64,000 nucleotides of DNA from Gammaproteobacteria bacterium (GTDB lineage Bacteria; Pseudomonadota; Gammaproteobacteria; SZUA-152), in NCBI GenBank assembly GCA_029882975.1, contig JAOUJW010000003.1, positions 67,090 through 131,089 of the forward strand. Reading direction: 5' to 3'. The notes under the pieces are model-generated. The model was not told the origin of the DNA and did not search any database. It saw nothing but the letters and a program-made list of their open reading frames with translations. This document shows positions 17,089 to 41,620 of the stretch, one piece after another. The position numbers and the translations under genes are program-made. Numbering within the stretch: position 1 is the stretch's first letter; every line of letters begins with the position of its first letter.

Positions 17089-17736
17089 GTGTTCCGGTCG
17101 GTGGTTATGATTAAATTTATCAGTAAAAATATGATAACCGGTTTGGTGGCAGTTTTGCCGGTGGTGTTAACCTTCTATTTGTTATATTGGATGGCGGTGT
17201 CCGCAGAAACCATTTTAGGTAATCTAATCCGCTTGGCACTTCCCAAAGAATACTATTGGCCGGGTATGGGCTTGGCGACCGGGTTGCTGGCAGTATTCTT
17301 GTTAGGGATGTTAATGCATGTGTACGTGATTCGGCGCTTGTTCTTAAAGGGAGAGCAACTGTTTTACCATATGCCGCTGATAAAGTCCGTTTATCGGTCC
17401 ATGCGGGATTTCTTTAATTACTTTTCCCCATCGCAAAAGAAAGGTTTTGCCAAAGTGGTTGCTGTGACCTTGGGGGAAATGCAGTTAATTGGATTTGTGA
17501 CGCAGGATAACTACCAGAGGATGCCTGAGAATTTTCGCCGGGAAGGCAGTGTGTTGGTTTATTTACCATTAAGCTATATGATTGGGGGTTATGCCGTACT
17601 GGTGCCTCGAACGGCAGTTCGGCCGGTGGATATGAGTGTAGAAGAGGCGATGCGTTTTACATTAACGGCAGGGGTCGCAGGCAGCCGTAAAGAAGCCGGC
17701 GATTCGAAAAAGAAAGCGGAGGGAGGGAAAACGTAG
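17089..17736 (+). CDS. DUF502-family membrane protein
   Basis: N-terminal transmembrane helix (ITGLVAVLPVVLTFYLLYWM) followed by a conserved soluble domain. Family assignment by pattern recall only. Confidence 0.5.
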   Translation: MFRSVVMIKFISKNMITGLVAVLPVVLTFYLLYWMAVSAETILGNLIRLALPKEYYWPGMGLATGLLAVFLLGMLMHVYVIRRLFLKGEQLFYHMPLIKSVYRSMRDFFNYFSPSQKKGFAKVVAVTLGEMQLIGFVTQDNYQRMPENFRREGSVLVYLPLSYMIGGYAVLVPRTAVRPVDMSVEEAMRFTLTAGVAGSRKEAGDSKKKAEGGKT

Positions 17737-17787
17737 GAGAGGTTGTGAGGCAACAACCCTCCCTCCACTAAAGGGCTTTCCCAGTGC

Positions 17788-19158
17788 TCACTCATTGTGT
17801 TCCGCTACTTTGAACATGCCATTCTGGGTATAGGCCGGACGTAATTGCCGTGGGTCCAATTTAGCGGCACTGTCCAGGCCCCGGCGTAGACTGGAACACT
17901 GTTGGGATTCTACCGCATTAAGATTGCGGGTTACGCGTACGGCTTTGACTAAAAACTGGCCGTGTTCATTGCTAAGTACCGTACCGTCTTTAAGGTGAAA
18001 ATGGGCATCTTCCTCGTCATCCCAGGGCAGACCCCATAGACGGCCTTCTCCATAATAACTCAATGTGTGGCGGGAACCGTGGTGCGGATTACCGGCAGCG
18101 CTCGTATTGGTGCGATCATTGTCTGCACTGTGGGTGTAACGAAAAATGAGCGGGTAGTGTTCATGGACAGCGACACTCTGGCCTTGCCGTACCGGGTAGG
18201 GTTCCGCCTGTTCGTAAGGGCGGTAGTTGCCATCTTCGGCGTGATACAGTTTGTACAGCACTTTGGTGTCGCTGCCGTCGCGGTTGCTGAAGCATATACC
18301 GGTTTCCGGGGTTCGGTTACCACGACTCAGGATGTGATTGCGGTTAAAACTTTGGATGGAGTCCAGTTCTTCCGGTAATCCCATGTAGTCGTACTGTAGG
18401 ACCGAGCGGCTGATTCCTGACTCGCCTTTAACACCGTTGAGCAAAACCACGGAACGGGCATGGTAAGTGTAAGGAGTATTGCGGCCGAAGCTGGAGCTGA
18501 GTTCCAAACGGTTTTGGCCGTGGGTATCTTTGCGTACGCGAACGTAGCCGATACCGTACTCCCTGGGGTCGCCAATATTCCCGCCGTAGAGTCCGTCATC
18601 TACTGTGATTTCATAGCTCATGCTGAAAATACCGTAGGGACTGTCGGCGTTGGCACTTTGTTCTATTTTTATTTGAGCCGCCAGCGAGGCATTGACTGCC
18701 TGTGGATGACTCAGATTCAGATCCGATTGCGGTAACTCAGTTCTTAGGCTGACATATTGGGCGGTTGCGGCGCTATTACGTTTGGACTCTATTTTAACGT
18801 TGAGATTGTTGGCCTGTAATTCCTCACCCATGCGACAGTTGCCCGTGGCAACAACACGCTGGTAAGGTCCTTTGTTGATGTTTTTATCAGCTTGGGTTTG
18901 GTGCAGTAAACAAAGCACCAGATTCACCGTATCCAGGTTCGGTGCCGGACCGTCAGTACTCAGTTCGGTCGATGTATAGTGGAGCAGTTTGTCGCTGTGG
19001 TATTCGCTTGTGGCACTATCAACGCTGTCGCTGGATGCCGCCGTAGATTGCAGCGGAGAAATGTGTAACGGTAACGCCAGTCCGTCTAATTGGGTAACGG
19101 TTTGGCTGGAGCAGGCAGACAATAACAGCGATGAAAGTAGGAGTGGTTTTTTATACAT
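17788..19158 (-). CDS. Hypothetical lipoprotein (456 aa)
   Basis: Lipobox LLLSACSS. Long ORF with clear coding periodicity. No recognisable domain. Confidence 0.5.
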   Translation of the reverse strand: MYKKPLLLSSLLLSACSSQTVTQLDGLALPLHISPLQSTAASSDSVDSATSEYHSDKLLHYTSTELSTDGPAPNLDTVNLVLCLLHQTQADKNINKGPYQRVVATGNCRMGEELQANNLNVKIESKRNSAATAQYVSLRTELPQSDLNLSHPQAVNASLAAQIKIEQSANADSPYGIFSMSYEITVDDGLYGGNIGDPREYGIGYVRVRKDTHGQNRLELSSSFGRNTPYTYHARSVVLLNGVKGESGISRSVLQYDYMGLPEELDSIQSFNRNHILSRGNRTPETGICFSNRDGSDTKVLYKLYHAEDGNYRPYEQAEPYPVRQGQSVAVHEHYPLIFRYTHSADNDRTNTSAAGNPHHGSRHTLSYYGEGRLWGLPWDDEEDAHFHLKDGTVLSNEHGQFLVKAVRVTRNLNAVESQQCSSLRRGLDSAAKLDPRQLRPAYTQNGMFKVAEHNE

Positions 19159-19535
19159 AGTTACGCACCTGTGTAAATAGTTGCCTCTGATTTAAAACTT
19201 GGTTTTGAATCTACGTGTCTTAAAAATTAGCAGACAGCTAAGAATTGGGAAATAAGCTAAACGTCCTAAGCTGTACTGACGCCTTAGTCCATTGGGATTA
19301 GGTAGATAGGGTTTTTACTCTCCAGACTGAATGCTTGCTGAACCGGTGTTGAAGAATATGTGCATGGTGGTGGTGGGGAAGGCTCCGATTTTTGTGGCCG
19401 TGAGGGCCAAAGACGGGTTAACGTAATGGGTGTATCGTTACGACACTGTGTTTAATATTGCAGGATTTGCCTGACGACTGTGGATATTAAGGTGCCAGGT
19501 GCCTGTTGGGGTATGACCGGGTAACTTTTGTTGAA

Positions 19536-19811
19536 TCAGTGCAATTTTTTTACCCCGGTCCAGCGTTTTTCTCCGGGATGCGCTGCGGCCACATGTTTCT
19601 CGGAAGCTTGCAAAGCATCTTCCCAGCTTTTGGCACAAGCACCCAGCCACGTGGTTTTACCGTGAACGCTGTGGGTGCAAAGGGGGTAATAGGGCTTATC
19701 ACCTGGACAATTTTGAGTTTGTGCCGGAACTGGGCGGTCACAGGCGCTCAAACCAAGCAGGAAAAAGCCGCCCATGACGACATAGATTTTCTTTGTTGTG
19801 ACGATACTCAT
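19536..19811 (-). CDS. Small Cys-containing lipoprotein (hypothetical)
   Basis: Lipobox FLLGLSAC followed by 4 Cys. An isolated small ORF, so confidence is low. Confidence 0.3.
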   Translation of the reverse strand: MSIVTTKKIYVVMGGFFLLGLSACDRPVPAQTQNCPGDKPYYPLCTHSVHGKTTWLGACAKSWEDALQASEKHVAAAHPGEKRWTGVKKLH

Positions 19812-20066
19812 TTTCGGTGTTCCCTTGCAATGTCAAACTAAAAAGGACTTTCAACTGAGCGACCCGTTCGTCCATTAATCACGTTTCAGATAGTAGTCGT
19901 GTTTTACCTCGATGCCAATTGGATGTTGTGTGGTGTCGTTGTTGAGGGTCAAAACTCTGGCGCAATTAATGAATAATGAGACAAGATGCTTTATAACAGT
20001 TGCAACCCTGAATGGTTAGGTATTATACATTTTTGTGCGCGGGGAGCGATTCTATTATTTAAGTAT

Positions 20067-27365: not shown

Positions 27366-29699
27366 ATGTCTAGTTATCCAAATAGTTTGTATAAATTTGG
27401 AAAAGGATTTCTTGCTGCTGCCATCGTCGCAGCGCCGCTAACAGTAACGCCGTTAACAGCAAAGAGTGCTGATGTGACACTGATTCAAGTGTCCGATTTG
27501 CATGGTAATTTGGTGCCACACGCCGGGGTTATTGAATCCGCAGGTGCACCGGATCGTTATGTTACCCAAGGCGGTGGTATGGCCAAGGTGGCAACGGTAG
27601 TCAACAGCATCCGTGCCAGTTCCCATGCGCACTTAACATTAGGGGTGGGTGACTCCCTTCACGGCAGTGCTGAGGTGCTGTTTACCATGGGCGATGCCAT
27701 TATGCCGGCCTTTAATGCTCTGGGGCTGGAGGCATACACGCCGGGTAACTGGGAGTTTGCTTATGGTCCGGCGGTTTTTCGAGCACGTTTTACCAATTTG
27801 TGTAAAGCCAATCCCAATTGGCAATTTCCCGGTCCGGGTAATAATCCAGGCAATAGTGTGCCGGGGCCCCATGTCTTATGCCCTATTGTGCCGCCCAATG
27901 CACGTGTGATGACCGACTCTGATGGTGTGCCAGGCGTGACGCCGGCCAACTTCGAGGTTTTGGCGAACAATTTGTACAATGGTGGTCCTTATCCCACAGC
28001 AGCACCGTTTTACGGTGACCGGCCTTTAAAGGCCTACAAGGTGTTTGAAAAAGGCGGTGTGAAAATTGGTGTTATCGGTATCACCGCTGCGATTGTGCCG
28101 CAACAACCTCCGGTATTCGGACGCACCTTTGAATTTACTCAGGGTATTGAAGAACTGCCTGCAGACATTGCGGCGGCAAAGGCGGCAGGGGCACAAATCA
28201 TCGTTGTCATGTCCGAGTTGGGCTTGCCGCAAAATGTGCAAATTGGCCGGGAATTTCCCGAAGTGGACGTTGTCCTATCCGCCCATTCTCATGAGCTGAC
28301 CTTAGGTGCCATTCTCGCGGACAGTAACGGTTTTGAAATGACCGCCCCTGGAACTGAATTGTCGGGTTCACAATTGGCGCGCCTGCAAAAGGGTGCAGCA
28401 GTCATTGTTGAGGCCGGTGAAGATTTATATGTAGGCCGTTTGGATCTGAAAATTTCTGACGGGAAAATCCAAAACATCGTATGGCAGGCCATTCCGGTCG
28501 ATGATGATGTGGTCGAAGATGCTACCGTGGCCGCGCTGGTCGCGGATCAGGAAAAATATTTTCTCGCCGGTACGGATTTCAAAACCCATACCTTTTTACC
28601 GGCGGCTTATTGCCGTAGTTTTGCCGCCCCCAATCCTTGCGATGCGGATGCCGATGGCGTCGTGCGCCGCGGCTTGCGCTTAACCGATCCTTTGGACTTG
28701 GTGGTAGGAACTACCGACGTGTTATTGCACCGTCATGAAGACCTGGAAGGCGTGATGAATAACTTTATTGCCGATGCCTTTAGAGGTACCTTGGAAGTGG
28801 CCGCCAAAAGTGCTCGTACGGAATGGGCCAATTTGGATGTGGTTTCCATGACCAACGGTTTTCGTTTTGATACGGTGGTGCTACCGGCGCACTTGGTGGC
28901 CGAAGGGCAAAGCTTTCGCGACGGTCGCAAGCCCGGTGAAGTGACTTTGCGCGACCTGTGGGGCTATTTTCCGGTTGCCGCAGGTATGGCTGCCGCAGAC
29001 TACAACGGTGTAGTTATCGAAGAGAATTTGAATAATATTTTGGCCAATGTATATGCGCCCAATCCTTACATTCAGCGCGGCGGTTGGTATTTAGGTTTGT
29101 CCAGCAATATGAAACAGCGGGTTGACGTGGTGCAGCGTCCGCTAAGCACCTCCGGTTCTCGCATCGTTGATACGCATATCAACGGTAAACTCATCGATCA
29201 CAGTAAGCGTTATATTATTGCTTCCTGCTACGGTCATACCTTTCCTATAGGCCGATCCTGCCGTGCCGAGGGTGGTGCCAATACCATTTTCTTTACCTTG
29301 GCCGACCCGGACAACTATAGCAGTGCTTTGGGGTTTGCCGATCCCATTCCCACACCGGCGGGACAACCTTTGATCGACAATAAAACGCCCAGAACTCCCA
29401 TATTCCGCGCAGCGCCGGATTATTATCTGCATCCGGTACACACCCTGCGACGGCATTTGGATGCCAGCGGTGGTTCTATCAATAATGCCAATCATGGCGT
29501 CGGTCGCGTGGTTCACGTGAATTCACGCCTGATTGATAATTGCGCCCCTCCAGCCAAACCCAATAAAGTCTGTGTCAACGATACCAAAACCTTCCTGGTG
29601 GATCCTATCGAGAATCACCATTACGAAGATGCTGTCGTTCAATCTATCGAAGGTCTTGGTCCTTCCTTCCTGGAACGCAATATTTCAGTAACTAAGTAG
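27366..29699 (+). CDS. Secreted bimetallic phosphoesterase of the 5'-nucleotidase/SoxB family (unusually long, 777 aa)
   Basis: Signal peptide present. Metallophosphatase motifs: LIQVSDLHGNL, GDSLHGSAEV, GNWEFAYGP (compare GHWEF in SoxB and GNHEFD in 5'-nucleotidases), SAHSHE. A Pro/Gly-rich insertion of roughly 120 aa follows the N-terminal lobe. The C-terminal half is substrate-binding-domain-like. Confidence 0.55.
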   Translation: MSSYPNSLYKFGKGFLAAAIVAAPLTVTPLTAKSADVTLIQVSDLHGNLVPHAGVIESAGAPDRYVTQGGGMAKVATVVNSIRASSHAHLTLGVGDSLHGSAEVLFTMGDAIMPAFNALGLEAYTPGNWEFAYGPAVFRARFTNLCKANPNWQFPGPGNNPGNSVPGPHVLCPIVPPNARVMTDSDGVPGVTPANFEVLANNLYNGGPYPTAAPFYGDRPLKAYKVFEKGGVKIGVIGITAAIVPQQPPVFGRTFEFTQGIEELPADIAAAKAAGAQIIVVMSELGLPQNVQIGREFPEVDVVLSAHSHELTLGAILADSNGFEMTAPGTELSGSQLARLQKGAAVIVEAGEDLYVGRLDLKISDGKIQNIVWQAIPVDDDVVEDATVAALVADQEKYFLAGTDFKTHTFLPAAYCRSFAAPNPCDADADGVVRRGLRLTDPLDLVVGTTDVLLHRHEDLEGVMNNFIADAFRGTLEVAAKSARTEWANLDVVSMTNGFRFDTVVLPAHLVAEGQSFRDGRKPGEVTLRDLWGYFPVAAGMAAADYNGVVIEENLNNILANVYAPNPYIQRGGWYLGLSSNMKQRVDVVQRPLSTSGSRIVDTHINGKLIDHSKRYIIASCYGHTFPIGRSCRAEGGANTIFFTLADPDNYSSALGFADPIPTPAGQPLIDNKTPRTPIFRAAPDYYLHPVHTLRRHLDASGGSINNANHGVGRVVHVNSRLIDNCAPPAKPNKVCVNDTKTFLVDPIENHHYEDAVVQSIEGLGPSFLERNISVTK

Positions 29700-30313: not shown

Positions 30314-31315
30314 TTACCCCCCGGTCATAGACATAAATCTTACGACCTGCTGCGGTTTTTCCACAAACTCATGTTTTTCCGGTTTACGTCTTATGGCGTC
30401 CACAATAGCTTGTTCAATGTCGGTGTCGCTGGCGCCGGATCGCAACAGGGGGCGCAGTTCCACTTTGTCGTTTTGCCCCAGACACAAATACAGCGTGCCT
30501 TCGGCGGATAGACGTACGCGATTACAGCTGTCGCAAAAGTGTTGCGAGATAGGCGTGATGAAACCAATGCGTAACTCCGTGTCGGCTACCCGGACATAAC
30601 GAGCCGGGCCGCCGCCGTTCATTACGCTGGGAAGCAAACGGTACTTCTGTTCCAAGCGCGCTTGCACTTGCTCCAGGCTGATATAGTGGTCCGTGGCGTT
30701 TTGTCCTGTGTTGCCTATGGGCATGGTCTCAATAAAACGCAGAGTAAAATCGTGCGCTATGCAAAAATCTACCATGGCTTCGATTTCATCGTCGTTAACA
30801 CCGCGCATGACCACCATGTTGATTTTGATGGGTTTAAAACCCGCCTCTTTGGCCGCCATAAGGCCGGCCATGACTTTTTCTAATTTGCCGCCATTGGTAA
30901 TGGTTTTGAAACGTTCTGGCTGAAGGCTGTCCAGGCTCACATTAATGCGGCTCACGTTGGCCTGCTTGAGAGCATGGGCATGGCGTTGCAGTTGCACTGC
31001 ATTGGTACTTAAGGATAAATCGTCTATGCCCGGCAGGGCGGAGAGTTGTTGTGCCAGCTGTGGCAGGTTTTTGCGTAACAGCGGCTCGCCTCCGGTGATG
31101 CGAATGCGATTAACGCCCAAGCGGCCAAAAGCGCCGATTAAACGCTGGATTTCATCGGCGTTTAACCAATGTTCCGGTTCTTCAAAGCTTTTAAATCCCT
31201 TAGGCAAGCAATAGACACAACGTAAATCACAACGGTCGGTCACGGACAGGCGCACGTATTCAATACGGCGACCGAACGCGTCATAAAGTCCGTTGTTGTT
31301 GCTTTGCGAGCTCAT
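30314..31315 (-). CDS. moaA: GTP 3',8-cyclase MoaA (molybdenum cofactor biosynthesis)
   Basis: Radical-SAM N-terminal motif (YVRLSVTDRCDLRCVYCLP). C-terminal Cys cluster (CDSCNRVRLSAEGTLYLCL). Confidence 0.85.
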   Translation of the reverse strand: MSSQSNNNGLYDAFGRRIEYVRLSVTDRCDLRCVYCLPKGFKSFEEPEHWLNADEIQRLIGAFGRLGVNRIRITGGEPLLRKNLPQLAQQLSALPGIDDLSLSTNAVQLQRHAHALKQANVSRINVSLDSLQPERFKTITNGGKLEKVMAGLMAAKEAGFKPIKINMVVMRGVNDDEIEAMVDFCIAHDFTLRFIETMPIGNTGQNATDHYISLEQVQARLEQKYRLLPSVMNGGGPARYVRVADTELRIGFITPISQHFCDSCNRVRLSAEGTLYLCLGQNDKVELRPLLRSGASDTDIEQAIVDAIRRKPEKHEFVEKPQQVVRFMSMTGG

Positions 31316-31414
31316 AGGGCATCAGCCTGGGTTTTACCATGTGGTACTAAAAGCCTAGCACTTATATTGCCAAGTGTAGAAATATTTCGGGCCGAAACAG
31401 CTCGGCCCGGTAAG

Positions 31415-32389
31415 TTATACGGTCTGATAGTACATATTTTGTGGGTGATTGGCCTGGGCAAAAAAGAACCAGCGCTCCACCAATAAACCCAGGTATTGCA
31501 CGATAAATGCGGTGACATACAAGCCGGTGTTGTGGCTGGATAAGCCAATGCTTAAAAACAATACCGGTAAAGGAAAGACCATGATCAAGAATATCCATTT
31601 GACGGATTTTAAGAACAGCGCTGTTTTTCCATGGAAAAATTCTCGGGTGTTAAAAGTGCCACCCATGGCGCCCATGGCTTTTTGTTGAATATTAATGTGA
31701 CGTACGCCAATGGCGGACTTGAGGCTGGACTTGGCTTTCAGGCGCCGATTGCGCAGCAGTGATGCGCCGCGGGTGACCAGGGCAAGTAAGGTCAGGATAA
31801 TGGCCCAGTCGGCGTAATAGTCCACCAATTGAGAGTTGTTGCGGCTGGCGTATACGGTGCACAGGGTGTATCCGGAAGCCATACCCAGCAAGGTGTAATT
31901 GATGACGGTTAAGGGAGAATGCCACTCCTGTAAAAACTTAAGGCAAGCGTAGATCATGCCGGTGCAGACGTACAGGGCAAAACAGACCACCAGTCCGGCG
32001 ATTCCAATCAAAACGGTCAAGCGCACTTCGGGGATGGTAGCGGTGCCGAAAGTGGCCGGATTGATGTTGAAATAGTGCAATACGCCGTAAACAAACACCA
32101 ACAGCATAAACAAGGGCAGGGCGATGACTTCGCGGGATAACCAGGAAGTGCGCCATTGCGCCGCTGCGCGCCAAGCCCGCTCCGGATGTCCCAGATGAAA
32201 GAAAGAAGCAAACAGTCCGGCGATGAGAAAAATCATGGCCAACAGGGCGCCACCGCTGTAAAACTCACCGTTCTGCGGCGGTAAGCCGGACATAATGCTA
32301 TAGCTTTGCCCCAGCACCAGGGCCAGAAACAAACCCTGACCCACCCCAATCAAGGTGGTCAGGAAAACAACGGAAAATGGAGGATTCAT
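31415..32389 (-). CDS. NrfD/PsrC-family polytopic membrane anchor subunit (SoeC-like)
   Basis: About 8-9 predicted transmembrane helices over 324 aa. Third gene of the molybdoenzyme operon. Confidence 0.65.
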   Translation of the reverse strand: MNPPFSVVFLTTLIGVGQGLFLALVLGQSYSIMSGLPPQNGEFYSGGALLAMIFLIAGLFASFFHLGHPERAWRAAAQWRTSWLSREVIALPLFMLLVFVYGVLHYFNINPATFGTATIPEVRLTVLIGIAGLVVCFALYVCTGMIYACLKFLQEWHSPLTVINYTLLGMASGYTLCTVYASRNNSQLVDYYADWAIILTLLALVTRGASLLRNRRLKAKSSLKSAIGVRHINIQQKAMGAMGGTFNTREFFHGKTALFLKSVKWIFLIMVFPLPVLFLSIGLSSHNTGLYVTAFIVQYLGLLVERWFFFAQANHPQNMYYQTV

Positions 32390-32457
32390 TGTTTAACAAA
32401 CTCCTGTGAAAATTGTTCGGTATTTGGTGCGCACAATCGAGTTGGCCATATATCGTG

Positions 32458-33186
32458 TTACCATGACGTGGAATCCTCCAAATACGGCCCGTCGTCGTCC
32501 TGAGGCAACGGACCCTCCTTCTTGAGCGGGTTGTCCACACGCACCAGTTCGTCTTCGTGAATATGCTGCTTGGTCTTACGCCGGGGCAAATAGTGATTGG
32601 CCGGCTGAGTACCCCATTCGGGCATGAGCGCATAGCCGCCGTTTTCACGAATGGCAATGGATGCTTCCGAATTGGGGTCGTGTACATCACCAAAAATACG
32701 CGCACTGGTGGGGCAGGAGATAACGCAGGCCGGTCGGCGTTCCGTTTCAGGCAGCTCTTCATTGTAGATGCGGTCTACGCACAAAGTGCATTTTTTCATG
32801 ACTTTTTCGTGCTGATCCAACTCGCGGGCACCGTAGGGGCAAGCCCAGGAACAGTAACCGCAGCCGATGCACTTGTCGTAGTTCACCAGTACTATGCCGT
32901 CTTCTTTGCGTTTGTAGCTGGCGCCCGTGGGACACACGGGTACACACGGGGCGTCTTCGCAATGCAGGCAGCTCTTGGGAAAGTGCACCGTTTCCGTGTG
33001 GGGAAAGACGCCCACTTCATAAGTCTGCACTCGATTAAAGAAAGTGCCCGTGGGGTCTTTGGCGTAAGGATTGTCATCCGTCATCGGTCCTGCGGAACCG
33101 GAGGAGTTCCACTGCTTACAGCTGGTCACACAAGCGTGGCAGCCAACGCAGACATTTAAATCAATAACTAAAGCAAGTTGCGTCAT
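32458..33186 (-). CDS. Four-cluster [4Fe-4S] ferredoxin-type iron-sulfur subunit (DmsB-like; SoeB-like)
   Basis: Four Cys clusters: CVGCHACVTSC, CLHCEDAPCVPVCP, CIGCGYCSWACP, CTLCVDRIY..CVISCP. Start taken at MTQLALVIDLN, which leaves a 10-nt gap after the catalytic subunit gene. Confidence 0.75.
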   Translation of the reverse strand: MTQLALVIDLNVCVGCHACVTSCKQWNSSGSAGPMTDDNPYAKDPTGTFFNRVQTYEVGVFPHTETVHFPKSCLHCEDAPCVPVCPTGASYKRKEDGIVLVNYDKCIGCGYCSWACPYGARELDQHEKVMKKCTLCVDRIYNEELPETERRPACVISCPTSARIFGDVHDPNSEASIAIRENGGYALMPEWGTQPANHYLPRRKTKQHIHEDELVRVDNPLKKEGPLPQDDDGPYLEDSTSW

Positions 33187-33196
33187 GGCTGTTCCT

Positions 33197-36088
33197 TTAT
33201 TTACGTTTACCGGCAAAATACGCCAACCAGGGTTTGCGTTGCGGTTGGCCCGGCGTGGGTAACATGGGTTTAAACTGGGGTGAGGTGACCTGCGGTTCGT
33301 CCGCATTGGCTTTGTACACTTTCACTCGCACGTCATACCACGCCGCCTGTCCGGTTAAAGGGTCAGAATTGGATAGGCGCATGCCTTGGCTGTCTTCCGG
33401 CAGTTCTTCAGAGATTACATGGTTCAGCAAAAAGCCTTTTTGTGACTCATTGGCATCCGGGGTAAGGTTCCAGGCGCCGGCGGCTTTACCAATGGCGTTC
33501 CAGGTCCAAACGGTGCCCGGTTCCACCGCTTCTGAGAAGCGGCACATGCAACGGACTTTACCGTGCATGGATTCCACCCAAACCCAGTCACCGTCATTAA
33601 AACCACCTTTAGCACCCAGCGTGGGGCTCATATACAGATAGTTATGGGTGTGAATCTGACGCAGCCAGGCGTTTTGCGAATCCCAGGAGTGGTACATGGC
33701 CATGGGGCGTTGGGTTACCGCGCTCAAGGGATACGTGTGTTTGTCCGTGGCCTGTTGTTCCAAAGGCTCATAGAAAAACGGTAAAGGATCGAAATAGGTT
33801 TCGATACGCTCACGCAAACGTGCCGGGGGTTGTTTGCCCGGATATTTACCTTGAGCTGCCAGACGAAATTTTTGCAGCACTTCGGAATATATATGAATAT
33901 TGATAGGGTCCGAATGTCGGGTCATGTGGTGGTGTTTGGCCCATTCCAAATACCCTTTGTTCCAGTTGCGCATGTATTGATACGACTTGGGCAGTTCATA
34001 ATGAAACACGCAATTGTTTTTCTCGTACATTTCCCACTGCTTGGGGTTAGGTTCACCACGCAGGAATTTTTCGCCGCCTTTTCCGCGCCAGCCGGATAGA
34101 AAGCCAATACCGGAGCCTTTTTCAGTTTCATGGTTGATGATAAAGTCCGGGTAGTCGCGGTATTTGCGTTTGCCTTCCGGTGTAGTGAAAGCCGCCAGTT
34201 TCAATCGGGTTCCCAGTTCGATCAGCACTTCCTGAAAAGGTTTGCATTGACCTTTAGGGGGCAGAACCGGAATCCGCACAGAGTCTACAGGCCCGTCAAA
34301 TTCGGAGATTGGGCGGTCCAGCATGGACATAACATCGTGGCGTTCCAAGTAGGTGGTGTCCGGCAATACCAAATCGGCATAGGCCACCATTTCCGATTGA
34401 AAGGCATCGCAGACGGCAATAAAAGGAATCTTGTATTCTCCGTCTTCGTTTTTATCGTTAAGCATTTGCCGTACCTGCTCCGTGTTCATGGAGGAGTTCC
34501 ATGCCATATTGGCCATGAAAATGAGCAGAGTGTCGATGGAATAGGGGTCGCCGCGCCAGGCATTGGTGATCACATTGTGCATGAGTCCGTGTACGGACAG
34601 GGGGTATTCCCAGGAAAAGGCTTTGTCGATGCGAATGGGTTCGCCGTTGTCGTCCACAAACAAATCATTGGGGTCCGCCGGCCAACCTAAAGGCATGCCG
34701 CCCAAGGGCGAATTGGGTTTGACACCATTTGGTCCGTTGGGGGTTTTGGGGCACGGCGGTATGGGGCGAGGGAACGGGGCCTTATGGCGAAAGCCGCCGG
34801 GGCGGTCAATGGTTCCTAGGATGCTCATCAATATGGAAAGTGCTCGGATGGTCTGAAAGCCGTTGGAATGGGCGGCCAGTCCACGCATGGCATGAAAGGA
34901 TACGGGGTTACCGGTCACCGCTTCATGGTCATTGCCCCAGGCATCGGTCCAGGCAATGGGTAGTTCAATTTTCTCATCACGGGCGGTAATGCCCATTTCG
35001 TGTGCCAGGGTTACAATGTCTTTGACGGGAATGCCGGTGATGTCCGCTGCCCATTCGGGGGTGTAATTTTTGACCCTATCCGCCAGCAATTGAAACGCCG
35101 GTTTAACCGGGGTACCGTCTTCCAGGGTAAATTCCCCCAGCAGGAACGGGTCAGCGCCTTCAGTGTGGGTGCGTACGGCGGCGTCTGTGTTGCGATCCCA
35201 CCAGAGTTGGTCTTGTGGGTGAATTTTGCCCGCATCCTCTTCTTCGTCCAGGCGCATGAACATGCCGAATTCGTCATGGCTGCTGTTCTGGTTCACCAAT
35301 TGCGCCGCGTTGCTGTATTTGATCAGAAATTCTCGGTCATAGAGGCCGGTGTTGATAATTTCGTTGATCAAGGCCAGGATTAAGGCGCCGTCAGTGCCGG
35401 GTTTAATAGGTACCCACTGATCGGCAATGGCGGAATAACCGGTGCGAATGGGGTTGATGGAAATAAATCGGCCACCGGAACGTTTGAATTGGGATAGAGA
35501 GATCTTCAAGGGATTGGAGTGGTGATCTTCCGCAGTGCCGAACATAACAAACAGGCGCGAGCGTTCCAGGTCCGGACCACCGAATTCCCAAAAAGAACCG
35601 CCAATGGAATAAATCATACCCGCCGCCATATTGACGGAGCAAAATCCGCCGTGCGCCGCATAGTTAGGGGTGCCGAATTGTTTGGCGAACAAGCCGGTCA
35701 GGGCCTGCATTTGATCGCGCCCGGTAAACAGAGCGAATTTTTTCGGGTCGGTATTGCGAATGTGGCTTAAGCGTTTTTCCAGGATTTCGAAAGCCTCATC
35801 CCAGGAAATAACTTCAAACTCCGCGGCACCGCGTTCGGCGCCTTCACGGCGTTTCAGTGGCTGGGTCAGGCGCGCCGGGGAATATTGTTTCATGATGCCG
35901 GAGCTGCCCTTGGCACACAGCACACCTTTGTTGAGCGGGTGGTCCGGGTTACCTTCTATGTAACGGACTTCGCCGTCACGTAGGGTGACTCGGATACCGC
36001 AACGGCATGCACACATGTAACACGTGGTTTTTTTAACTTCAATGCTGCCCGACTCTTTCGGAGAGTTGTTACTGGTTTGGTTAGCCAT
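33197..36088 (-). CDS. Molybdopterin (Mo-bisPGD) oxidoreductase catalytic subunit without a Tat signal; best candidate SoeA (cytoplasmic sulfite dehydrogenase)
   Basis: 963 aa. N-terminal CxxCxxxC..C [4Fe-4S] motif (CYMCACRCGIRV..C). No twin-arginine motif in the N-terminus, so a cytoplasm-facing enzyme. Followed by FeS and NrfD-like genes, which is the SoeABC architecture. moaA is adjacent. Confidence 0.65.
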   Translation of the reverse strand: MANQTSNNSPKESGSIEVKKTTCYMCACRCGIRVTLRDGEVRYIEGNPDHPLNKGVLCAKGSSGIMKQYSPARLTQPLKRREGAERGAAEFEVISWDEAFEILEKRLSHIRNTDPKKFALFTGRDQMQALTGLFAKQFGTPNYAAHGGFCSVNMAAGMIYSIGGSFWEFGGPDLERSRLFVMFGTAEDHHSNPLKISLSQFKRSGGRFISINPIRTGYSAIADQWVPIKPGTDGALILALINEIINTGLYDREFLIKYSNAAQLVNQNSSHDEFGMFMRLDEEEDAGKIHPQDQLWWDRNTDAAVRTHTEGADPFLLGEFTLEDGTPVKPAFQLLADRVKNYTPEWAADITGIPVKDIVTLAHEMGITARDEKIELPIAWTDAWGNDHEAVTGNPVSFHAMRGLAAHSNGFQTIRALSILMSILGTIDRPGGFRHKAPFPRPIPPCPKTPNGPNGVKPNSPLGGMPLGWPADPNDLFVDDNGEPIRIDKAFSWEYPLSVHGLMHNVITNAWRGDPYSIDTLLIFMANMAWNSSMNTEQVRQMLNDKNEDGEYKIPFIAVCDAFQSEMVAYADLVLPDTTYLERHDVMSMLDRPISEFDGPVDSVRIPVLPPKGQCKPFQEVLIELGTRLKLAAFTTPEGKRKYRDYPDFIINHETEKGSGIGFLSGWRGKGGEKFLRGEPNPKQWEMYEKNNCVFHYELPKSYQYMRNWNKGYLEWAKHHHMTRHSDPINIHIYSEVLQKFRLAAQGKYPGKQPPARLRERIETYFDPLPFFYEPLEQQATDKHTYPLSAVTQRPMAMYHSWDSQNAWLRQIHTHNYLYMSPTLGAKGGFNDGDWVWVESMHGKVRCMCRFSEAVEPGTVWTWNAIGKAAGAWNLTPDANESQKGFLLNHVISEELPEDSQGMRLSNSDPLTGQAAWYDVRVKVYKANADEPQVTSPQFKPMLPTPGQPQRKPWLAYFAGKRK

Positions 36089-36547
36089 TTAGGGTTCCTG
36101 AATAAAGCAAACGAAAAGTATATATCAGAATATTCGCATATACCTAATCAGCAATATTGAGCGTGGAATAGAAAAATTATATTTACTACTCAATTGCCGT
36201 CTAAAGGGTAGGAATTTCAAGGTCTTTATCTATTCTAGCCTGGAAATGATGAATATAGGCTGACTAGTATGCAAAATCGTGTCAATTCTGTGAAACCTGA
36301 GACACAAAATCCACTACGACTTTTGAGGCCATGGTTGGAACTGAATAAGGTTGGAAGGAACGGGATTTATTAATTAATGGCTTTATTAAAAAGCCGAATA
36401 GCAATAACGGGCAATTGCGAATAGAATAGGCGGCGCAAATAATTTTCAGTCAACCTTTGCAAAACAAGAACATATTAACTGTAACTCCGAAAGCGGTAGA
36501 CAGTGGTTGACACAACTTTCGGTAGATACTGGAGGAGGGAAGCAATA

Positions 36548-37837
36548 ATGGTGGACGCGGTTGCAACCAACCAGACCATAGTGGTTGTCGGTGGTGGTAT
36601 TGCGGGTCTTACTGCAGCGCTCGAGGCCGCTGAGTGTGGTAAAGACGTTATTCTGATCGAAAAAAGCCCTGCGGTGGGCGGGCGTATTTCGCGCTTATAC
36701 AAGTATTTCCCGAAACTGTGTGTTCCCTCTTGCGGCCTGGAAATCAACCTGCGCCGACTCAAAGCCAATAAAAACATCCGGCTGATTACTCTTGCGGAAG
36801 TGAGTCAAGTCAGCGGCGAAGCCGGTAACTACAGCTTGTCCGTGAGTGTCAAACCTCGCTTTGTGACGGAAAATTGCACCGCTTGCGGAGATTGTGCCAC
36901 GGCATTGGAAACCAACGATTACAGCGACGAACACAATTACGGTATGAGTAAGCGCAAAGGCGCTTATTTACCGCACAATATGGCCTACCCGCAACGCTAC
37001 GTCATCGATCCGGCTATGATCGGCAGCGACGATGCCAATAAAGCCAAAGCGGCTTGTCAATACAATGCGATTGATTTGGATATGCAAGAGCAGACGTTGG
37101 AGCTAAAAGCGGGAGCCATTATTTGGGCCACCGGTTGGAAGCCTTACGATGCAGCTAAAATTCAGCCCTACGGCTACGATCGCTACGAGAACGTCATTAC
37201 CAGTGTGGAGTTCGAACGCATGATGGACCCTTACGGTCCCACCGGTGGCAAACTGGTTCGGCCTTCCGACGGTAAAGAAGCCAAGAACGTCGCTTTTATT
37301 CAGTGTGCCGGTTCCCGAGATGAAAATCATCTGCGCCACTGTTCCCGTATATGCTGTATGGCCAGCCTGAAGCAAACCACTTATGTGCGGGAGCAATACG
37401 GTGACGAAGGTAAGTCCAGTGTGTATTACATTGATATTCGTGCCATCGATCGCATTGATGATTTCTATCAAAACGTTCAGGCCGATGAAAACGTCACCTT
37501 TGTTAAGTCTAAAGTGGCCAGCATTACCCTGGACAAAGCCAGCGGTGACCCCGTGCTTAATGGTGTGAATACGGAAGGTTATCATCGTTACAGCAACGCG
37601 CATGATTTGGTTGTGCTGGCGGTGGGTATGGAGCCCAGCGTGCCCAAAGAGGCATTTCCTGTTGAGGTGAAACTTAACGAAAACGGGTTTATCGAACAGG
37701 ACGACAGCAACGGGGCTATTTTTGCCGCCGGTTGCGCGTCCGACGCCCTGGATGTGAATCGAGCGGTACAAAACGCCACTGCCAGTGCACTGCGTGCAAT
37801 TCAAGTGGTTAATCGCGTCGCCGGAATGGAGGGATAA
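36548..37837 (+). CDS. HdrA-like FAD-dependent oxidoreductase (QmoA-like)
   Basis: GGAGGG RBS. FAD Rossmann motif (IVVVGGGIAGLTAALEAAE). Internal Cys cluster (CTACGDCA). About 430 aa. Confidence 0.7.
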   Translation: MVDAVATNQTIVVVGGGIAGLTAALEAAECGKDVILIEKSPAVGGRISRLYKYFPKLCVPSCGLEINLRRLKANKNIRLITLAEVSQVSGEAGNYSLSVSVKPRFVTENCTACGDCATALETNDYSDEHNYGMSKRKGAYLPHNMAYPQRYVIDPAMIGSDDANKAKAACQYNAIDLDMQEQTLELKAGAIIWATGWKPYDAAKIQPYGYDRYENVITSVEFERMMDPYGPTGGKLVRPSDGKEAKNVAFIQCAGSRDENHLRHCSRICCMASLKQTTYVREQYGDEGKSSVYYIDIRAIDRIDDFYQNVQADENVTFVKSKVASITLDKASGDPVLNGVNTEGYHRYSNAHDLVVLAVGMEPSVPKEAFPVEVKLNENGFIEQDDSNGAIFAAGCASDALDVNRAVQNATASALRAIQVVNRVAGMEG

Positions 37838-37841
37838 GAAA

Positions 37842-40070
37842 GTGGCAGATGAAATAAAAATCGGCGCCTATATTTGTAAGGGTTGTGGTTTGGGCGAGCG
37901 TCTTGGGGAGGCGCAATTACCCATGATTGCCGAGCGCGAAGCCAAGGCCCATGTTGTTAAAGAACATGACTTCCTGTGTAACGCTGAAGGCGTTGCCATG
38001 ATACAGGCGGATATTGATAATGAGGGTGTGAACCGTGTGGCCATTTGCGCTTGTTCCCGCCGTGCCAAGACGGAAGCTTTTAATTTTGAAAACGTGGCCA
38101 TCACCCGCGCCAATTTGCGCGAGGGTGTGATCTGGGCACGACCGGATACGGATGAAGCCCGGGAAACCACCCATGAAATGGCTGCGGATTACGTGCGCAT
38201 GGCAGTGGCTGAGGCTCGTTTCCAAAAACCGCCGGCAGCCAATGCCGAAGCCGCCTACAATAATCAGATACTAGTCGTTGGTGGTGGTGTCAGTGGTATG
38301 ACATCTGCCATAGAAGCGGCTAAAGCCGGTTATTCCGTCACGATCGTGGAGAAAGGCGCGCAGCTGGGTGGTCATACAGCAGGATTTTATAAGCGTATTC
38401 CCGATAAAGCCCCGTACAAGGATCCCGTGCCCACCGGCGTGGAGGAAATGATTCTGGCAGTGGGCGCTGACAATAAGATCACTGTCCATTTGAATTCCAC
38501 GGTGACTAAAACCGACGGTTCTCCCGGACGTTTTTCTGTGGATATCAGTACAGAAAGCGGTTCCACTTCCACTGAAACCTTCGGTTCTATTATTCAGGCA
38601 TCCGGCTTTACGCCTTACGATGCCAACAAGCTGCCGGAATTGGCTTATGACAAGTCCAAGGATGTCGTCACTCAATCGGAGTTGGAAGCTTTGGCCAAAG
38701 CAGCCAATGGCGGCCCCATTAAGCGGCCTTCCGATGGTAAGGAAGTCAGCAGTGTTATCTTTGTACAATGCGCCGGCCAGCGTAGCAATGAGGAAGGTCA
38801 TTTACCCTATTGTTCCGGACATTGCTGCCTCACTTCCATCAAGCAAGCTATGTATTTCAAAGATGCCAATCCGAGCATTGATGCTAATGTGATCTACACG
38901 GATTTACGCACTCCGGGTGCGGGCGGCGAGGACTTCTATCGCAGTGGCCAGGAAAAAGGTGTTACCTTTACCAAAGGTAAAGTGAGTTCGGTACTTATCG
39001 GTGACCAGCTTACCGTAAAGTTTCAGGATTTGATCCTGGCTCAGGAGTCAGCGGAACAAGCGGACCTGGTGGTCTTGGCAACCGGTATGGTGGCCAACTC
39101 AGGTGTGGATATCGATGCACTGCCTAAACCCGACAAAGAGGATGGGACGGTTGAAGTGAGCATTCCTGTCGAGTCCATCCTTAACCTAACCTACCGTCAG
39201 GGGCCGGATTTACCGCATTTAAAGCACGGTTTCAATGATTCTCATTTCATCTGTTTTCCCTATGAGACTCGCCGTACGGGTATCTATACTACCGGCCCGG
39301 TACGTCGTCCGATGGATATTTTACAGGCCAAAGAAGATGCGACCGGTGCGGCGTTAAAAGCGATACAGGCTATAGAAAACTCCGGTAAAGGTCGTGCAGC
39401 TCATCCTCGCTCGGGCGATTTGTCTTTCCCGTCATTTCGTCGGGAAGGTTGCACTCAGTGTAAACGTTGTACGGTAGAGTGCCCCTTCGGTGCTATCGAC
39501 GAAGACGAGCAACGCTATCCGGTGTTTAATGAGTCACGTTGTCGCCGTTGCGGAACCTGTATGGGTGCTTGTCCGGTGCGGGTTATCTCATTTGAAAATT
39601 ATTCCGTGGAAACGGTTGGGCAACAGCTCAAGAGTGTGGATATTCCCGAAGAATTTGATGAAAAACCACGCATTCTGGTCTTGGCTTGTGAGAATGACGC
39701 TTACCCCGCCCTGGATATGGCCGGCATGAACCGTCACGAATACAGTGCGTTTGCACGAATCATTCCGGTACGCTGTTTGGGTTCCACCAATCTGGTTTGG
39801 ATCACAGACGCCATGAACAGCGGTTATGACGGTGTGATCTTGATGGGTTGCCAAAAAGGTGAGAACTATCAGTGTCACTTCGTTAAAGGATCGGAAATGG
39901 CGCATTACCGCATGAGTAAGGTAGATGATACGCTGAAGAGCTTATCTTTGGAGGGGGAGCGAGTGGCCACTTACGAAGTAGCGATTACCGATAGTGAGCG
40001 GGTGGCCCAGTTGATCAACGATATGGCAGCGACCATTGAAAAAATCGGCATGAGCCCGTTTAAGTTCTAG
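37842..40070 (+). CDS. HdrA-like flavoprotein with ferredoxin domains and C-terminal MvhD-like domain (QmoB-like)
   Basis: GTG start at 37842 lies 4 nt after the upstream stop, with a GGAGGG RBS. Second FAD motif (ILVVGGGVSGMTSAIEAAKAG). 2x[4Fe-4S] motifs (CTQCKRCTVECP, CRRCGTCMGACP). The C-terminus (ILVLACENDAYPALDMAG..RIIPVRCLGSTN) matches the MvhD fold. Confidence 0.7.
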   Translation: MADEIKIGAYICKGCGLGERLGEAQLPMIAEREAKAHVVKEHDFLCNAEGVAMIQADIDNEGVNRVAICACSRRAKTEAFNFENVAITRANLREGVIWARPDTDEARETTHEMAADYVRMAVAEARFQKPPAANAEAAYNNQILVVGGGVSGMTSAIEAAKAGYSVTIVEKGAQLGGHTAGFYKRIPDKAPYKDPVPTGVEEMILAVGADNKITVHLNSTVTKTDGSPGRFSVDISTESGSTSTETFGSIIQASGFTPYDANKLPELAYDKSKDVVTQSELEALAKAANGGPIKRPSDGKEVSSVIFVQCAGQRSNEEGHLPYCSGHCCLTSIKQAMYFKDANPSIDANVIYTDLRTPGAGGEDFYRSGQEKGVTFTKGKVSSVLIGDQLTVKFQDLILAQESAEQADLVVLATGMVANSGVDIDALPKPDKEDGTVEVSIPVESILNLTYRQGPDLPHLKHGFNDSHFICFPYETRRTGIYTTGPVRRPMDILQAKEDATGAALKAIQAIENSGKGRAAHPRSGDLSFPSFRREGCTQCKRCTVECPFGAIDEDEQRYPVFNESRCRRCGTCMGACPVRVISFENYSVETVGQQLKSVDIPEEFDEKPRILVLACENDAYPALDMAGMNRHEYSAFARIIPVRCLGSTNLVWITDAMNSGYDGVILMGCQKGENYQCHFVKGSEMAHYRMSKVDDTLKSLSLEGERVATYEVAITDSERVAQLINDMAATIEKIGMSPFKF

Positions 40071-40088
40071 GCGGAGGGGACAAGAACA

Positions 40089-40709
40089 ATGACTGCATCG
40101 AATACTGACGTCATCGAAGCGTACAGAAACAATTTTCTTAAAGAAGTGGAAGCCAATGTAGAGGAAGGCCAGTGGGTGAAAATGTGCATGCAATGTGGCG
40201 TGTGCTCCGGCTCCTGTCCTCTTGGCTCCCATTGGGCGCATCCGCCGCAGGAAATCTTTATGATGATCCGAGCCGGTAAGCGCGAAGAGGTATTAACTTC
40301 CGACTCCATGTGGATGTGTACCTCGTGTTACAACTGCATCGTGCGTTGTCCGCGGGGCCTGCCGATTACTCATATCATGCACGGCCTGGCGCACTATGCT
40401 CATCGTTTGGGTTTGGCGCCGAAGGAACAACCCACGCGTAAATTCGCCAAATTGTTCTGGGACAATCTCACCAAGACCGGACGGGTTAATGAGTTGCAAT
40501 TGGGTTTGAGGCTGTATTTCATGAACGGCCCAATGGAAGGGATCAAGACGGCGTTGAAAATGAAAAACATCGGCTTGAATATGTGGAAAACCAAACGCAT
40601 GAATCCCATGGAGTTTTTCGGTGGCCATAAATGCAAAGACGCCGACAAACTACAGGCAATTTTGAAAAAAGCCCGTGAAATTGAACTGGCTAAAGCCAAA
40701 CAAGTTTGA
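40089..40709 (+). CDS. Heterodisulfide reductase subunit C-like (2x[4Fe-4S])
   Basis: Two Cys clusters: CMQCGVCSGSCP and CTSCYNCIVRCP. Confidence 0.7.
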   Translation: MTASNTDVIEAYRNNFLKEVEANVEEGQWVKMCMQCGVCSGSCPLGSHWAHPPQEIFMMIRAGKREEVLTSDSMWMCTSCYNCIVRCPRGLPITHIMHGLAHYAHRLGLAPKEQPTRKFAKLFWDNLTKTGRVNELQLGLRLYFMNGPMEGIKTALKMKNIGLNMWKTKRMNPMEFFGGHKCKDADKLQAILKKAREIELAKAKQV

Positions 40710-41620
40710 GGAGAGATAGACTAATGGCTAAAAAGGAATACTCGTTTTATCCCGGTTGCTCTTCTCAGAAGGGTGCTTCATCGTCCAATTACGATACATC
40801 CATAAAGACGATGTGTGATGTCCTGGATATTCAGTTAAACGAAATTCAGGATTGGAACTGTTGTTCTGCTTCCATCGGTTACGGTGAGGGTGGGGAATTA
40901 CCCCGCCTGGCTTTGAGCGCACGTAATTTGGCTCTGTCCGAGCAACAAAATGCCGGGCAAGACATCGTCGCGACCTGCGCCGCCTGCTGGCTGGCCACGC
41001 GTGAAACCCGCGAACGCCTGTTGGAAGATGAACATTTGATGAAAGAAACCAACGAAGCCCTGGCTGCCGGCGGTTTGAATGTGGCCGCTTCTCAGAACGT
41101 TCGTCACATGGTAGAGGTTCTAATTGAAGACTTCGGCTATGAACAACTGGGTTCCAAAGTGACCAACCCTCTGGAAGGCTTGAAAATAGCCGGTTATGTT
41201 GGGTGCCAGACTAATCGTCCTTTTGGGATTGATGGCGAGTCTTACGAAAACCCCATGTATCTGGACAAGCTGGTTGAAACTATGGGGGCCGAGCCTTTAA
41301 GCAAGTATGAAAAAAAGGTTCAGTGTTGCGGCGGTGCTTTGGCATTTTCCGAACCGGAAAAAAGCCAGGCCATGATTAAGGATATTATCGAATCTGCCTA
41401 CGATCATGGGGCCGACATGATCGTAACGCCCTGTCCCGTTTGTCAAATGAATACGGAAGTTTATCAAGACCAAATCAACAAAACGTATGGCACGAAGTTT
41501 AAAATGCCTGTCGTGTATTACAGCACCCTAATGAGTGTTGCCTATGGTAAGAGTCACAAGGAAGCCGCTTTGGATGGTCAAATCATCAAAGCCACGAAAT
41601 TGGAACAAAAAGTTAAATAG
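40706..41620 (+). CDS. Heterodisulfide reductase subunit B-like (two CCG domains)
   Basis: CCG-domain cysteines in two copies: YPGC..NCCSAS..CAAC and YVGCQ..QCCGG..PCPVC. Its start overlaps the HdrC-like stop by 4 nt. Confidence 0.75.
   Translation: MRRDRLMAKKEYSFYPGCSSQKGASSSNYDTSIKTMCDVLDIQLNEIQDWNCCSASIGYGEGGELPRLALSARNLALSEQQNAGQDIVATCAACWLATRETRERLLEDEHLMKETNEALAAGGLNVAASQNVRHMVEVLIEDFGYEQLGSKVTNPLEGLKIAGYVGCQTNRPFGIDGESYENPMYLDKLVETMGAEPLSKYEKKVQCCGGALAFSEPEKSQAMIKDIIESAYDHGADMIVTPCPVCQMNTEVYQDQINKTYGTKFKMPVVYYSTLMSVAYGKSHKEAALDGQIIKATKLEQKVK

Follow-up and report, generated by a model that had tools for sequence, protein, structure and literature searches.

SoeABC complexes have been described from Allochromatium vinosum (Alvin_2491-2489, Dahl et al. 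2013), Aquifex aeolicus (Boughanemi et al. 2020) and Thioalkalivibrio (Berben et al. 2019), and their genes share the order A-B-C. In the 'Sox-Dsr-Soe' core pathway put forward by Watanabe et al., soeABC was found in every dsr-positive oxidiser surveyed and was typical of genomes without SoxCD; among oxidisers it co-occurs strictly with dsr or with sHdr (PMC6397845). Here we analysed a window of 64,000 nucleotides (nt) from a gammaproteobacterium (assembly GCA_029882975.1, contig JAOUJW010000003.1, positions 67,090 to 131,089), which carries three adjacent genes at window positions 31415-36088 on the minus strand. The original prediction, made from the same DNA, had recognised in them the pattern of a SoeABC-like sulfite dehydrogenase. 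Gene order, cofactor motifs, absence of a twin-arginine translocation (Tat) signal, fold, clade and pathway context indeed agree with this view, and the three genes very probably encode a SoeABC orthologue, that is, a cytoplasm-facing sulfite:quinone oxidoreductase of sulfur-oxidising bacteria. As in the described systems, a Tat-less subunit of ~109 kDa with a molybdenum-bis(pyranopterin guanine dinucleotide) (Mo-bisPGD) site and an FS0 cluster is combined with a four-cluster subunit of ~27 kDa without signal peptide and an eight-helix NrfD-like anchor of ~36 kDa, and the enzyme occurs alongside a reverse-acting Dsr system (rDsr) and Sox without SoxCD. We found no difference of substance from SoeABC.

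The catalytic subunit is encoded by soeA (33197-36088, minus strand; 963 amino acids (aa), 108.7 kDa), which was assigned on the basis of Pfam domains, motifs and phylogeny. After a gap of 10 nt it is followed by soeB (32458-33186, minus strand; 242 aa, 27.0 kDa), the four-cluster ferredoxin subunit, and after a further 68 nt by soeC (31415-32389, minus strand; 324 aa, 36.1 kDa), which Pfam and an AlphaFold2 model identify as a quinone-interacting anchor of the NrfD/PsrC/DmsC type. Judged from these open reading frame (ORF) coordinates, the three genes lie contiguously on one strand as a single operon, and soeABC is present in one copy in the genome. The corresponding subunits of A. vinosum reportedly have masses of ~109, 27 and 36 kDa, very close to the values calculated here. 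The previously proposed coordinates and subunit sizes therefore hold, as does the placement of moaA about 100 nt downstream on the same strand (99 nt by ORF coordinates), and only the start of soeB needed correcting. The longest soeB ORF (32458-33306) would give 282 aa, but its 40 extra residues overlap soeA out of frame and are not conserved. The ATG at 33186 lies 10 nt past the soeA stop and is preceded by an AGGAA ribosome-binding site; the protein then begins MTQLALVIDLN, and the distance from the start to the first Cys motif is as from this ATG in 74 of 76 SoeB homologues. The 282-aa form was also considered as a carrier of a hidden Tat leader, with an 'RR' at residues 5-6, and was rejected, since it lacks a hydrophobic stretch, runs over soeA in a different frame and disagrees with the starts of the homologues.

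The domain composition of the subunits is that of a Mo-bisPGD enzyme with a ferredoxin-like partner and a membrane anchor. SoeA contains Molybdop_Fe4S4 (PF04879), Molybdopterin (PF00384) and Molydop_binding (PF01568), and SoeB and SoeC match Fer4_11 and DmsC/NrfD, respectively. The N-terminal CxxCxxxC..C motif expected in the 963-aa subunit is present as C23-x2-C26-x3-C30...C58; these four residues, the motif of the FS0 [4Fe-4S] cluster, are invariant in 79-81 of 81 aligned sequences. Cys150 is invariant in all 81 sequences and aligns with Cys173 of Thermus PsrA (2VPW), which we take to be the Mo ligand of that enzyme, so that Cys150 is the probable Mo ligand of SoeA. The view of SoeB as a four-cluster ferredoxin subunit preceding an NrfD/PsrC-type anchor is borne out by its 16 Cys residues, which fall into four motifs, are all conserved in 76 of 76 sequences and suffice for four clusters, and by the eight-helix model of SoeC described below.

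These features are shared with several exported enzymes. PsrABC of Thermus thermophilus (PDB 2VPW-2VPZ), whose A subunit is the closest one with a solved structure, has the same Cys Mo ligand, the same cluster pattern in the B subunit and the same fold in the C subunit, and PhsABC, TtrABC and DmsABC of enterobacteria share the common architecture of complex iron-sulfur molybdoenzymes with an NrfD/DmsC-type anchor. From this three-subunit architecture and the PsrA-like Cys ligand one might argue that the locus encodes a periplasmic respiratory reductase of the Psr/Phs/Ttr/Dms type whose export signal was overlooked. However, PsrA is a periplasm-facing protein of 765 aa with a Tat leader, which aligns well with SoeA only over the first ~260 residues, and SoeA is ~200 residues longer; the enterobacterial enzymes are all Tat-exported, whereas SoeA is not. 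The codon immediately 5' of the soeA ATG is TAA, and because this stop directly precedes the start, an in-frame upstream extension is impossible. The first 60 residues of SoeA are free of an RR pair, the 22 residues ahead of the first Cys being hydrophilic, and an RR or hydrophobic leader was found in none of 78 full-length SoeA homologues from related loci. SoeB starts 12 residues ahead of its first cluster motif and has no signal peptide. As a positive control, we read the N-termini encoded by the remaining five Mo-bisPGD genes of this genome. Four of them carry twin-arginine motifs (LTRRRFLQ, FSRRHFLK, LNRRDFLK and INRRSFLK), the fifth protein being a cytoplasmic, NasA-like assimilatory nitrate reductase. 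Since paralogs in the same genome show clear Tat leaders, the absence of a leader from SoeA is a real property and not an artefact of annotation. The absence of a twin-arginine leader claimed by the original prediction is thus confirmed, with the TAA codon excluding a hidden upstream signal, and the lack of Tat or Sec signals in both SoeA and SoeB predicts a cytoplasmic (N-side) orientation.

The predicted topology of the anchor subunit agrees with this orientation. An AlphaFold2 model of SoeC, built from a 35-sequence alignment (predicted local distance difference test score 80.5, predicted template modelling score 0.84), shows eight transmembrane helices, and the solved structures that it resembles most are those of PsrC (2vpw_C) and of the ActC subunits of alternative complex III, all of the NrfD family. 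SoeC is accordingly modelled as a haem-free, NrfD/PsrC-like anchor. Averaged over 71 homologues, loops 67-82 and 216-256 are conserved and rich in Lys and Arg, whereas the alternate loops are not. Because these loops are basic, the positive-inside rule places them, together with both termini, in the cytoplasm, which gives a predicted N-in/C-in topology for SoeC. The termini of PsrC lie on the periplasmic side, and an inversion of SoeC relative to PsrC was predicted in a review of the NrfD family (PMC8076601). The loop charges of SoeC predict an orientation opposite to that of PsrC. Together with the stop codon ahead of soeA, the leaderless homologues and the model scores and tree given below, this makes a periplasmic reductase extremely improbable.

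Comparison with curated family models separates SoeA from the characterised reductases. Its best NCBIfam model is PhsA, with 221 bits against a cut-off of 694. Lower scores were obtained with the dmsA_ynfE subfamily model (173 bits against 778), the DmsA-specific model (124 against 1600) and TtrA (114 against 1750); the Arr models likewise remain below their cut-offs. The narG and narH models score 34 bits against 1084 and 67 bits against 524, respectively. NarGHI moreover combines a catalytic subunit of ~1240 aa and a beta subunit of ~500 aa with the dihaem anchor NarI, which is unmatched by the 963-aa and 242-aa subunits and the haem-free NrfD-type anchor found here, and the claimed distinction from NarGHI is upheld.

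Close relatives of the locus are numerous, with thousands of proteins sharing 74-87% identity with SoeA along its entire length. In a word-indexed protein search that scored 8000 candidates, the best 120 SoeA matches, which are those described here, are all full-length (943-979 aa) and 78-87% identical; most belong to uncultured Gammaproteobacteria (Thiohalomonadales, Kaarinaea lacus, Ectothiorhodospiraceae). One match with 78% identity carries the Joint Genome Institute label 'sulfite dehydrogenase (quinone) subunit SoeA', automatic naming also gave SoeA for the nearest Atlas cluster, and the exact protein is already in public collections; in the NCBI pipeline these proteins are called no more than 'molybdopterin oxidoreductase family protein'. 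From a genome scan we took the 80 closest soe loci, none of them from Allochromatium, in which SoeA is 74-83% identical. Their sources include Thioalkalivibrio sulfidiphilus ALJ17, Thioalkalivibrio ALE31 and ALJ3, Sedimenticola, Sulfuricella, Sulfuritalea, Gallionella and Sideroxydans, and the A-B-C order is kept in every related locus long enough to show it. The loci of Thioalkalivibrio ALJ17, ALE31 and ALJ3 encode SoeA proteins 76-78% identical to the one described here, and soeABC was identified in all 75 Thioalkalivibrio genomes with the A. vinosum proteins as queries (Berben et al. 2019, PMC6382920).

A quick maximum-likelihood tree, supported by the Shimodaira-Hasegawa-like approximate likelihood-ratio test (SH-aLRT), placed SoeA in a tight, short-branched clade with named sulfur oxidisers. 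For the more distant part of the family, a search against 50% representatives returned mostly metagenomic fragments, and nine full-length distant representatives were usable. Next to the SoeA clade stand divergent relatives of 35-56% identity, which are either Tat-less (P0125, P0127, P0131) or Tat-bearing (P0135, P0193). A long branch with 99% SH-aLRT support parts the SoeA group from the ArrA-like, QrcB/ActB-like, NapA, NasA-like and Fdh-like enzymes of the same genome, including its Tat-bearing Arr/Psr-like paralog. The check within the DMSO-reductase family thus leaves the catalytic subunit outside the Arr/Psr-like, Nap/Nas and Fdh enzymes and in a clade with the soeA products of sulfur oxidisers. 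With no leader, PhsA and TtrA scores far under their cut-offs and this separate, supported clade, the enzyme also stands apart from the Tat-exported Psr/Ttr/Phs enzymes, as had been proposed. As a side observation, P0130, P0135 and P0193, which are 35-42% identical to SoeA, are longer proteins of 1074-1452 aa; P0135 and P0193 have clear twin-arginine leaders, which marks them as predicted periplasmic cousins of the SoeA clade, and P0130 is without a clear one.

The genome context is that of a sulfur oxidiser. The assembly (5.18 Mb in 59 contigs, 99.4% complete) is a metagenome-assembled genome (MAG) of an uncultured sediment bacterium. Four sequencing runs are listed as containing the sequence, all of them DNA from sediment metagenomes and none RNA. 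On contig C16, dsrA and dsrB score over their cut-offs and are followed by dsrE, dsrF, dsrH, dsrC, dsrK and a DsrL-like gene in the A. vinosum order, the full set on this contig being dsrABEFHCMK plus the DsrL-like gene. Contig C40 carries soxB (879 bits), contig C47 carries sat-aprB-aprA, and two genes for the large subunit of RuBisCO are present in the genome. These dsr, soxB, sat-aprBA and RuBisCO genes substantiate the earlier designation of the organism as a probable sulfur oxidiser. Neither SoxCD nor SorAB was found in the genome; for SoxC and SorA, the sole frame with PF00174 is 261 aa long, which is too short. Because the genome holds no PF00174 protein of SoxC or SorA size, SoeABC alone is a candidate for the direct oxidation of sulfite here. 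The genome thus shows the published 'Sox-Dsr-Soe' pattern.

This context bears on a further explanation, namely that the complex is a cytoplasm-facing reductase of S0 or polysulfide, thiosulfate, tetrathionate or sulfite that takes its electrons from quinol, as was first proposed for the Aquifex 'Sre' enzyme. In vitro activities of the Aquifex enzyme, as cited in PMC12102312, speak for this explanation, and polysulfide and thiosulfate reductases supply the nearest solved structure and the highest-scoring NCBIfam model below its cut-off. Genes homologous to Aquifex 'SreABC', which may correspond to soeABC, have also been mentioned for Thiolapillus strain Hiromi 1 (PMC4136832). However, the genome belongs to an autotrophic sulfur oxidiser that has rDsr (including DsrEFH and a DsrL-like protein) and Sox lacking SoxCD. 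Because such an oxidative rDsr/Sox genome without another direct sulfite oxidase needs a cytoplasmic sink for sulfite, a reductase would fit it poorly. The strict occurrence of soeABC alongside dsr or sHdr in oxidisers (PMC6397845) argues in the same direction, and so does the genetics of A. vinosum, which supports sulfite oxidation according to the passages of PMC6397845 and PMC6382920 that cite Dahl 2013. We therefore consider a reductase distinctly unlikely and retain the assignment of the complex as a sulfite:quinone oxidoreductase.

Several points weigh against this assignment. The link to the SoeABC enzymes of A. vinosum, characterised genetically, and of A. aeolicus, characterised biochemically, is transitive, by way of Thioalkalivibrio and of automatically assigned labels. 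NCBIfam contains no SoeA, SoeB or SoeC model, SoeC is without any NCBIfam match, and no curated SoeA hidden Markov model exists in NCBIfam or Pfam, so there is no membership cut-off to score against. No solved SoeABC structure is available in the PDB, the nearest entry being PsrA with E = 1e-40, mostly over residues 21-259. The placement of the clade depends on a quick tree with SH-aLRT as its only support, and the topology of SoeC is a prediction from the positive-inside rule. Finally, neither the substrate nor the direction of catalysis in vivo can be read from sequence; both, and the coupling to quinone, are what we infer from the observations above.

Taken together, these results suggest the following mechanism. 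The reverse-acting Dsr system would release sulfite in the cytoplasm, where the Mo-bisPGD centre of SoeA, with Cys150 as the probable Mo ligand, would convert it to sulfate. The two electrons would then pass from Mo-bisPGD through the FS0 [4Fe-4S] cluster of SoeA and the four [4Fe-4S] clusters of SoeB to quinone in SoeC. The latter would be embedded in the membrane the opposite way round to PsrC, with both termini and the loops that dock SoeB facing the cytoplasm. The adjoining moaA would provide for the initial step of cofactor synthesis. It is likely that SoeABC would act in parallel to the indirect AprBA/Sat route, of which HdrAACB would be the probable electron acceptor.

The hdr genes lie next to soeA. 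Divergent from it, and outside the enzyme itself, a plus-strand operon at 36503-41620 was assigned by Pfam to hdrAACB (qmoA-qmoB-hdrC-hdrB). It encodes two HdrA-like proteins, a flavoprotein of 444 aa and a second one of 761 aa that ends in an MvhD/FlpD domain, as well as HdrC (206 aa) and HdrB (304 aa, containing a CCG domain). Operons of this type, hdrAACB or qmoAB-hdrCB, have been linked to adenosine 5'-phosphosulfate (APS) reductase in oxidisers without AprM (PMC6397845, PMC5024460, PMC4136832). The hdrAACB/QmoAB-HdrCB systems of Thiobacillus denitrificans, Thiolapillus brandeum and Sulfuricaulis limicola likewise comprise two HdrA-like flavoproteins, the second with MvhD, together with HdrC and HdrB, stand apart from aprBA and are accompanied by no AprM. 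In the genome studied here, no AprM was found beside aprBA on contig C47. A 306-aa ORF that directly follows aprA on that contig (L087:12017-12937, plus strand), at the place expected for AprM, was examined as an AprM candidate and rejected, as it has no hydrophobic segments and encodes a soluble protein with a CxxCxxCC domain (PF03692). The original prediction had seen the sulfite dehydrogenase as framing the neighbouring Hdr-like genes. An Hdr-like operon is indeed present, but it is not the sulfur-oxidising sHdr system, whose layout is hdrC1B1A-hyp-C2B2 with LbpA; its gene content is that of hdrAACB, and tblastn detected no second hdrB or hdrC in the genome.

The pairing of the two operons is not confined to this genome. 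The divergent arrangement of soeA and hdrA was found in at least nine loci of Gamma- and Betaproteobacteria; it is complete in L016, L022, L045, L049, L058 and L065, comprises three of the four hdr genes in L018 and is seen in part in L043 and L053. In L040, hdrCB lies beside soeABC in the other orientation. Such recurrence, the fact that aprBA of this genome lies on a different contig and has no adjacent AprM, and the existence of two MAGs that have the pairing and show no aprA could be taken to mean that SoeABC and HdrAACB form one functional unit, for example by coupling sulfite-derived electrons to NAD(P)+ or ferredoxin, with HdrAACB not serving AprBA. However, aprA scores over its cut-off in eight of the ten genomes with hdr genes beside soeABC (the nine pairing loci and L040), the other two being possibly incomplete MAGs. 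In two of these genomes aprA and the cluster are no more than ~10 kb apart, provided that the numbered contigs are the loci's own contigs. Most soeABC loci have no hdrAACB nearby (a divergent hdrAACB neighbour is seen in ~1/8 of related loci), soeABC and hdrAACB are far apart in Sulfuricaulis limicola, and the literature cited above assigns HdrAACB to APS reductase. One functional unit of this kind is therefore very improbable and, because eight of the ten genomes have aprA, the conventional role of HdrAACB as a partner of APS reductase stands.

The two MAGs without aprA over the cut-off are those of L016 (genome G001) and L043 (genome G008), in the latter of which only hdrA1 is visible. The missing aprA is probably due to incompleteness; as they stand, these MAGs are the one observation that does not fit HdrAACB serving AprBA alone. 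A broader proposal is that soeABC and hdrAACB, joined here by moaA, constitute a co-regulated 'cytoplasmic sulfite oxidation island' run from one shared 414-bp control region, in which electrons might pass between HdrAACB and the Soe/quinone branch, either in addition to AprBA or in its place. The two MAGs with the pairing and no detectable aprA would be compatible with such an island, which we regard as very unlikely. Within the 414-bp divergent intergenic region, the number of sigma-70-like sites is not above that expected from shuffled sequence; one match to the consensus (TTTAGA, an 18-nt spacer and TATAAT) lies at 36176-36205 on the minus strand, ~88 nt upstream of the soeA start, and is a consensus match only.

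On the other side of the operon, moaA (30314-31315, minus strand) encodes a 333-aa GTP 3',8-cyclase, the enzyme of the first step of molybdenum cofactor synthesis. It was identified by its Radical_SAM and Mob_synth_C domains in Pfam and by NCBIfam model TIGR02666, with 398.6 bits against a cut-off of 284. Its position directly after soeC is shared by only a subset of related soe loci: in about a dozen of the closest loci moaA comes after soeC, and in three it lies upstream of soeA in divergent orientation. It is probably co-regulated, or partly co-transcribed, with soeABC. A second moaA, 44% identical to the first, is found at C53:22077-23054 (L091), ~4.5 kb from a Tat-bearing Fdh-like gene, and two moaA paralogs near Mo enzymes hint at an enzyme-linked supply of cofactor. 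Directly 3' of the soeC stop, at 31388-31409 on the minus strand, a G+C-rich hairpin with a 9-bp stem, seven of its pairs being G-C, and a poor T tail was found by pattern match only; it may act as a weak terminator or attenuator of read-through into moaA.

The soeABC genes described here are a typical copy of a known system, the family, orientation, distribution and co-occurrence rules of which have all been published, and they raise no new question about the SoeABC enzyme family itself. Their value lies chiefly in annotation: the identity of soeABC completes the Sox-rDsr-Soe plus Apr/Sat sulfur-oxidation pathway in a sediment MAG, and the reading of the neighbouring Hdr-like genes is corrected to hdrAACB.

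Two other observations were made in the course of this analysis. At 27366-29699 on the plus strand, the window encodes a 777-aa protein of the metallophosphatase/5'-nucleotidase family with a weak match to SoxB (138 bits, where the cut-off is 550). A paralog on contig C36 shares 32% identity with it, and contig C7 holds a partial relative just outside the window; the true soxB is the one on contig C40. Contig C36 further carries, at 17362-19854 (L089:3363-5855, minus strand), a Tat-bearing Mo enzyme with a ferredoxin subunit downstream. The best model for this enzyme is ArrA, with 440 bits against a cut-off of 1600, and by its sequence it could be Arx/Arr-like or Psr-like.

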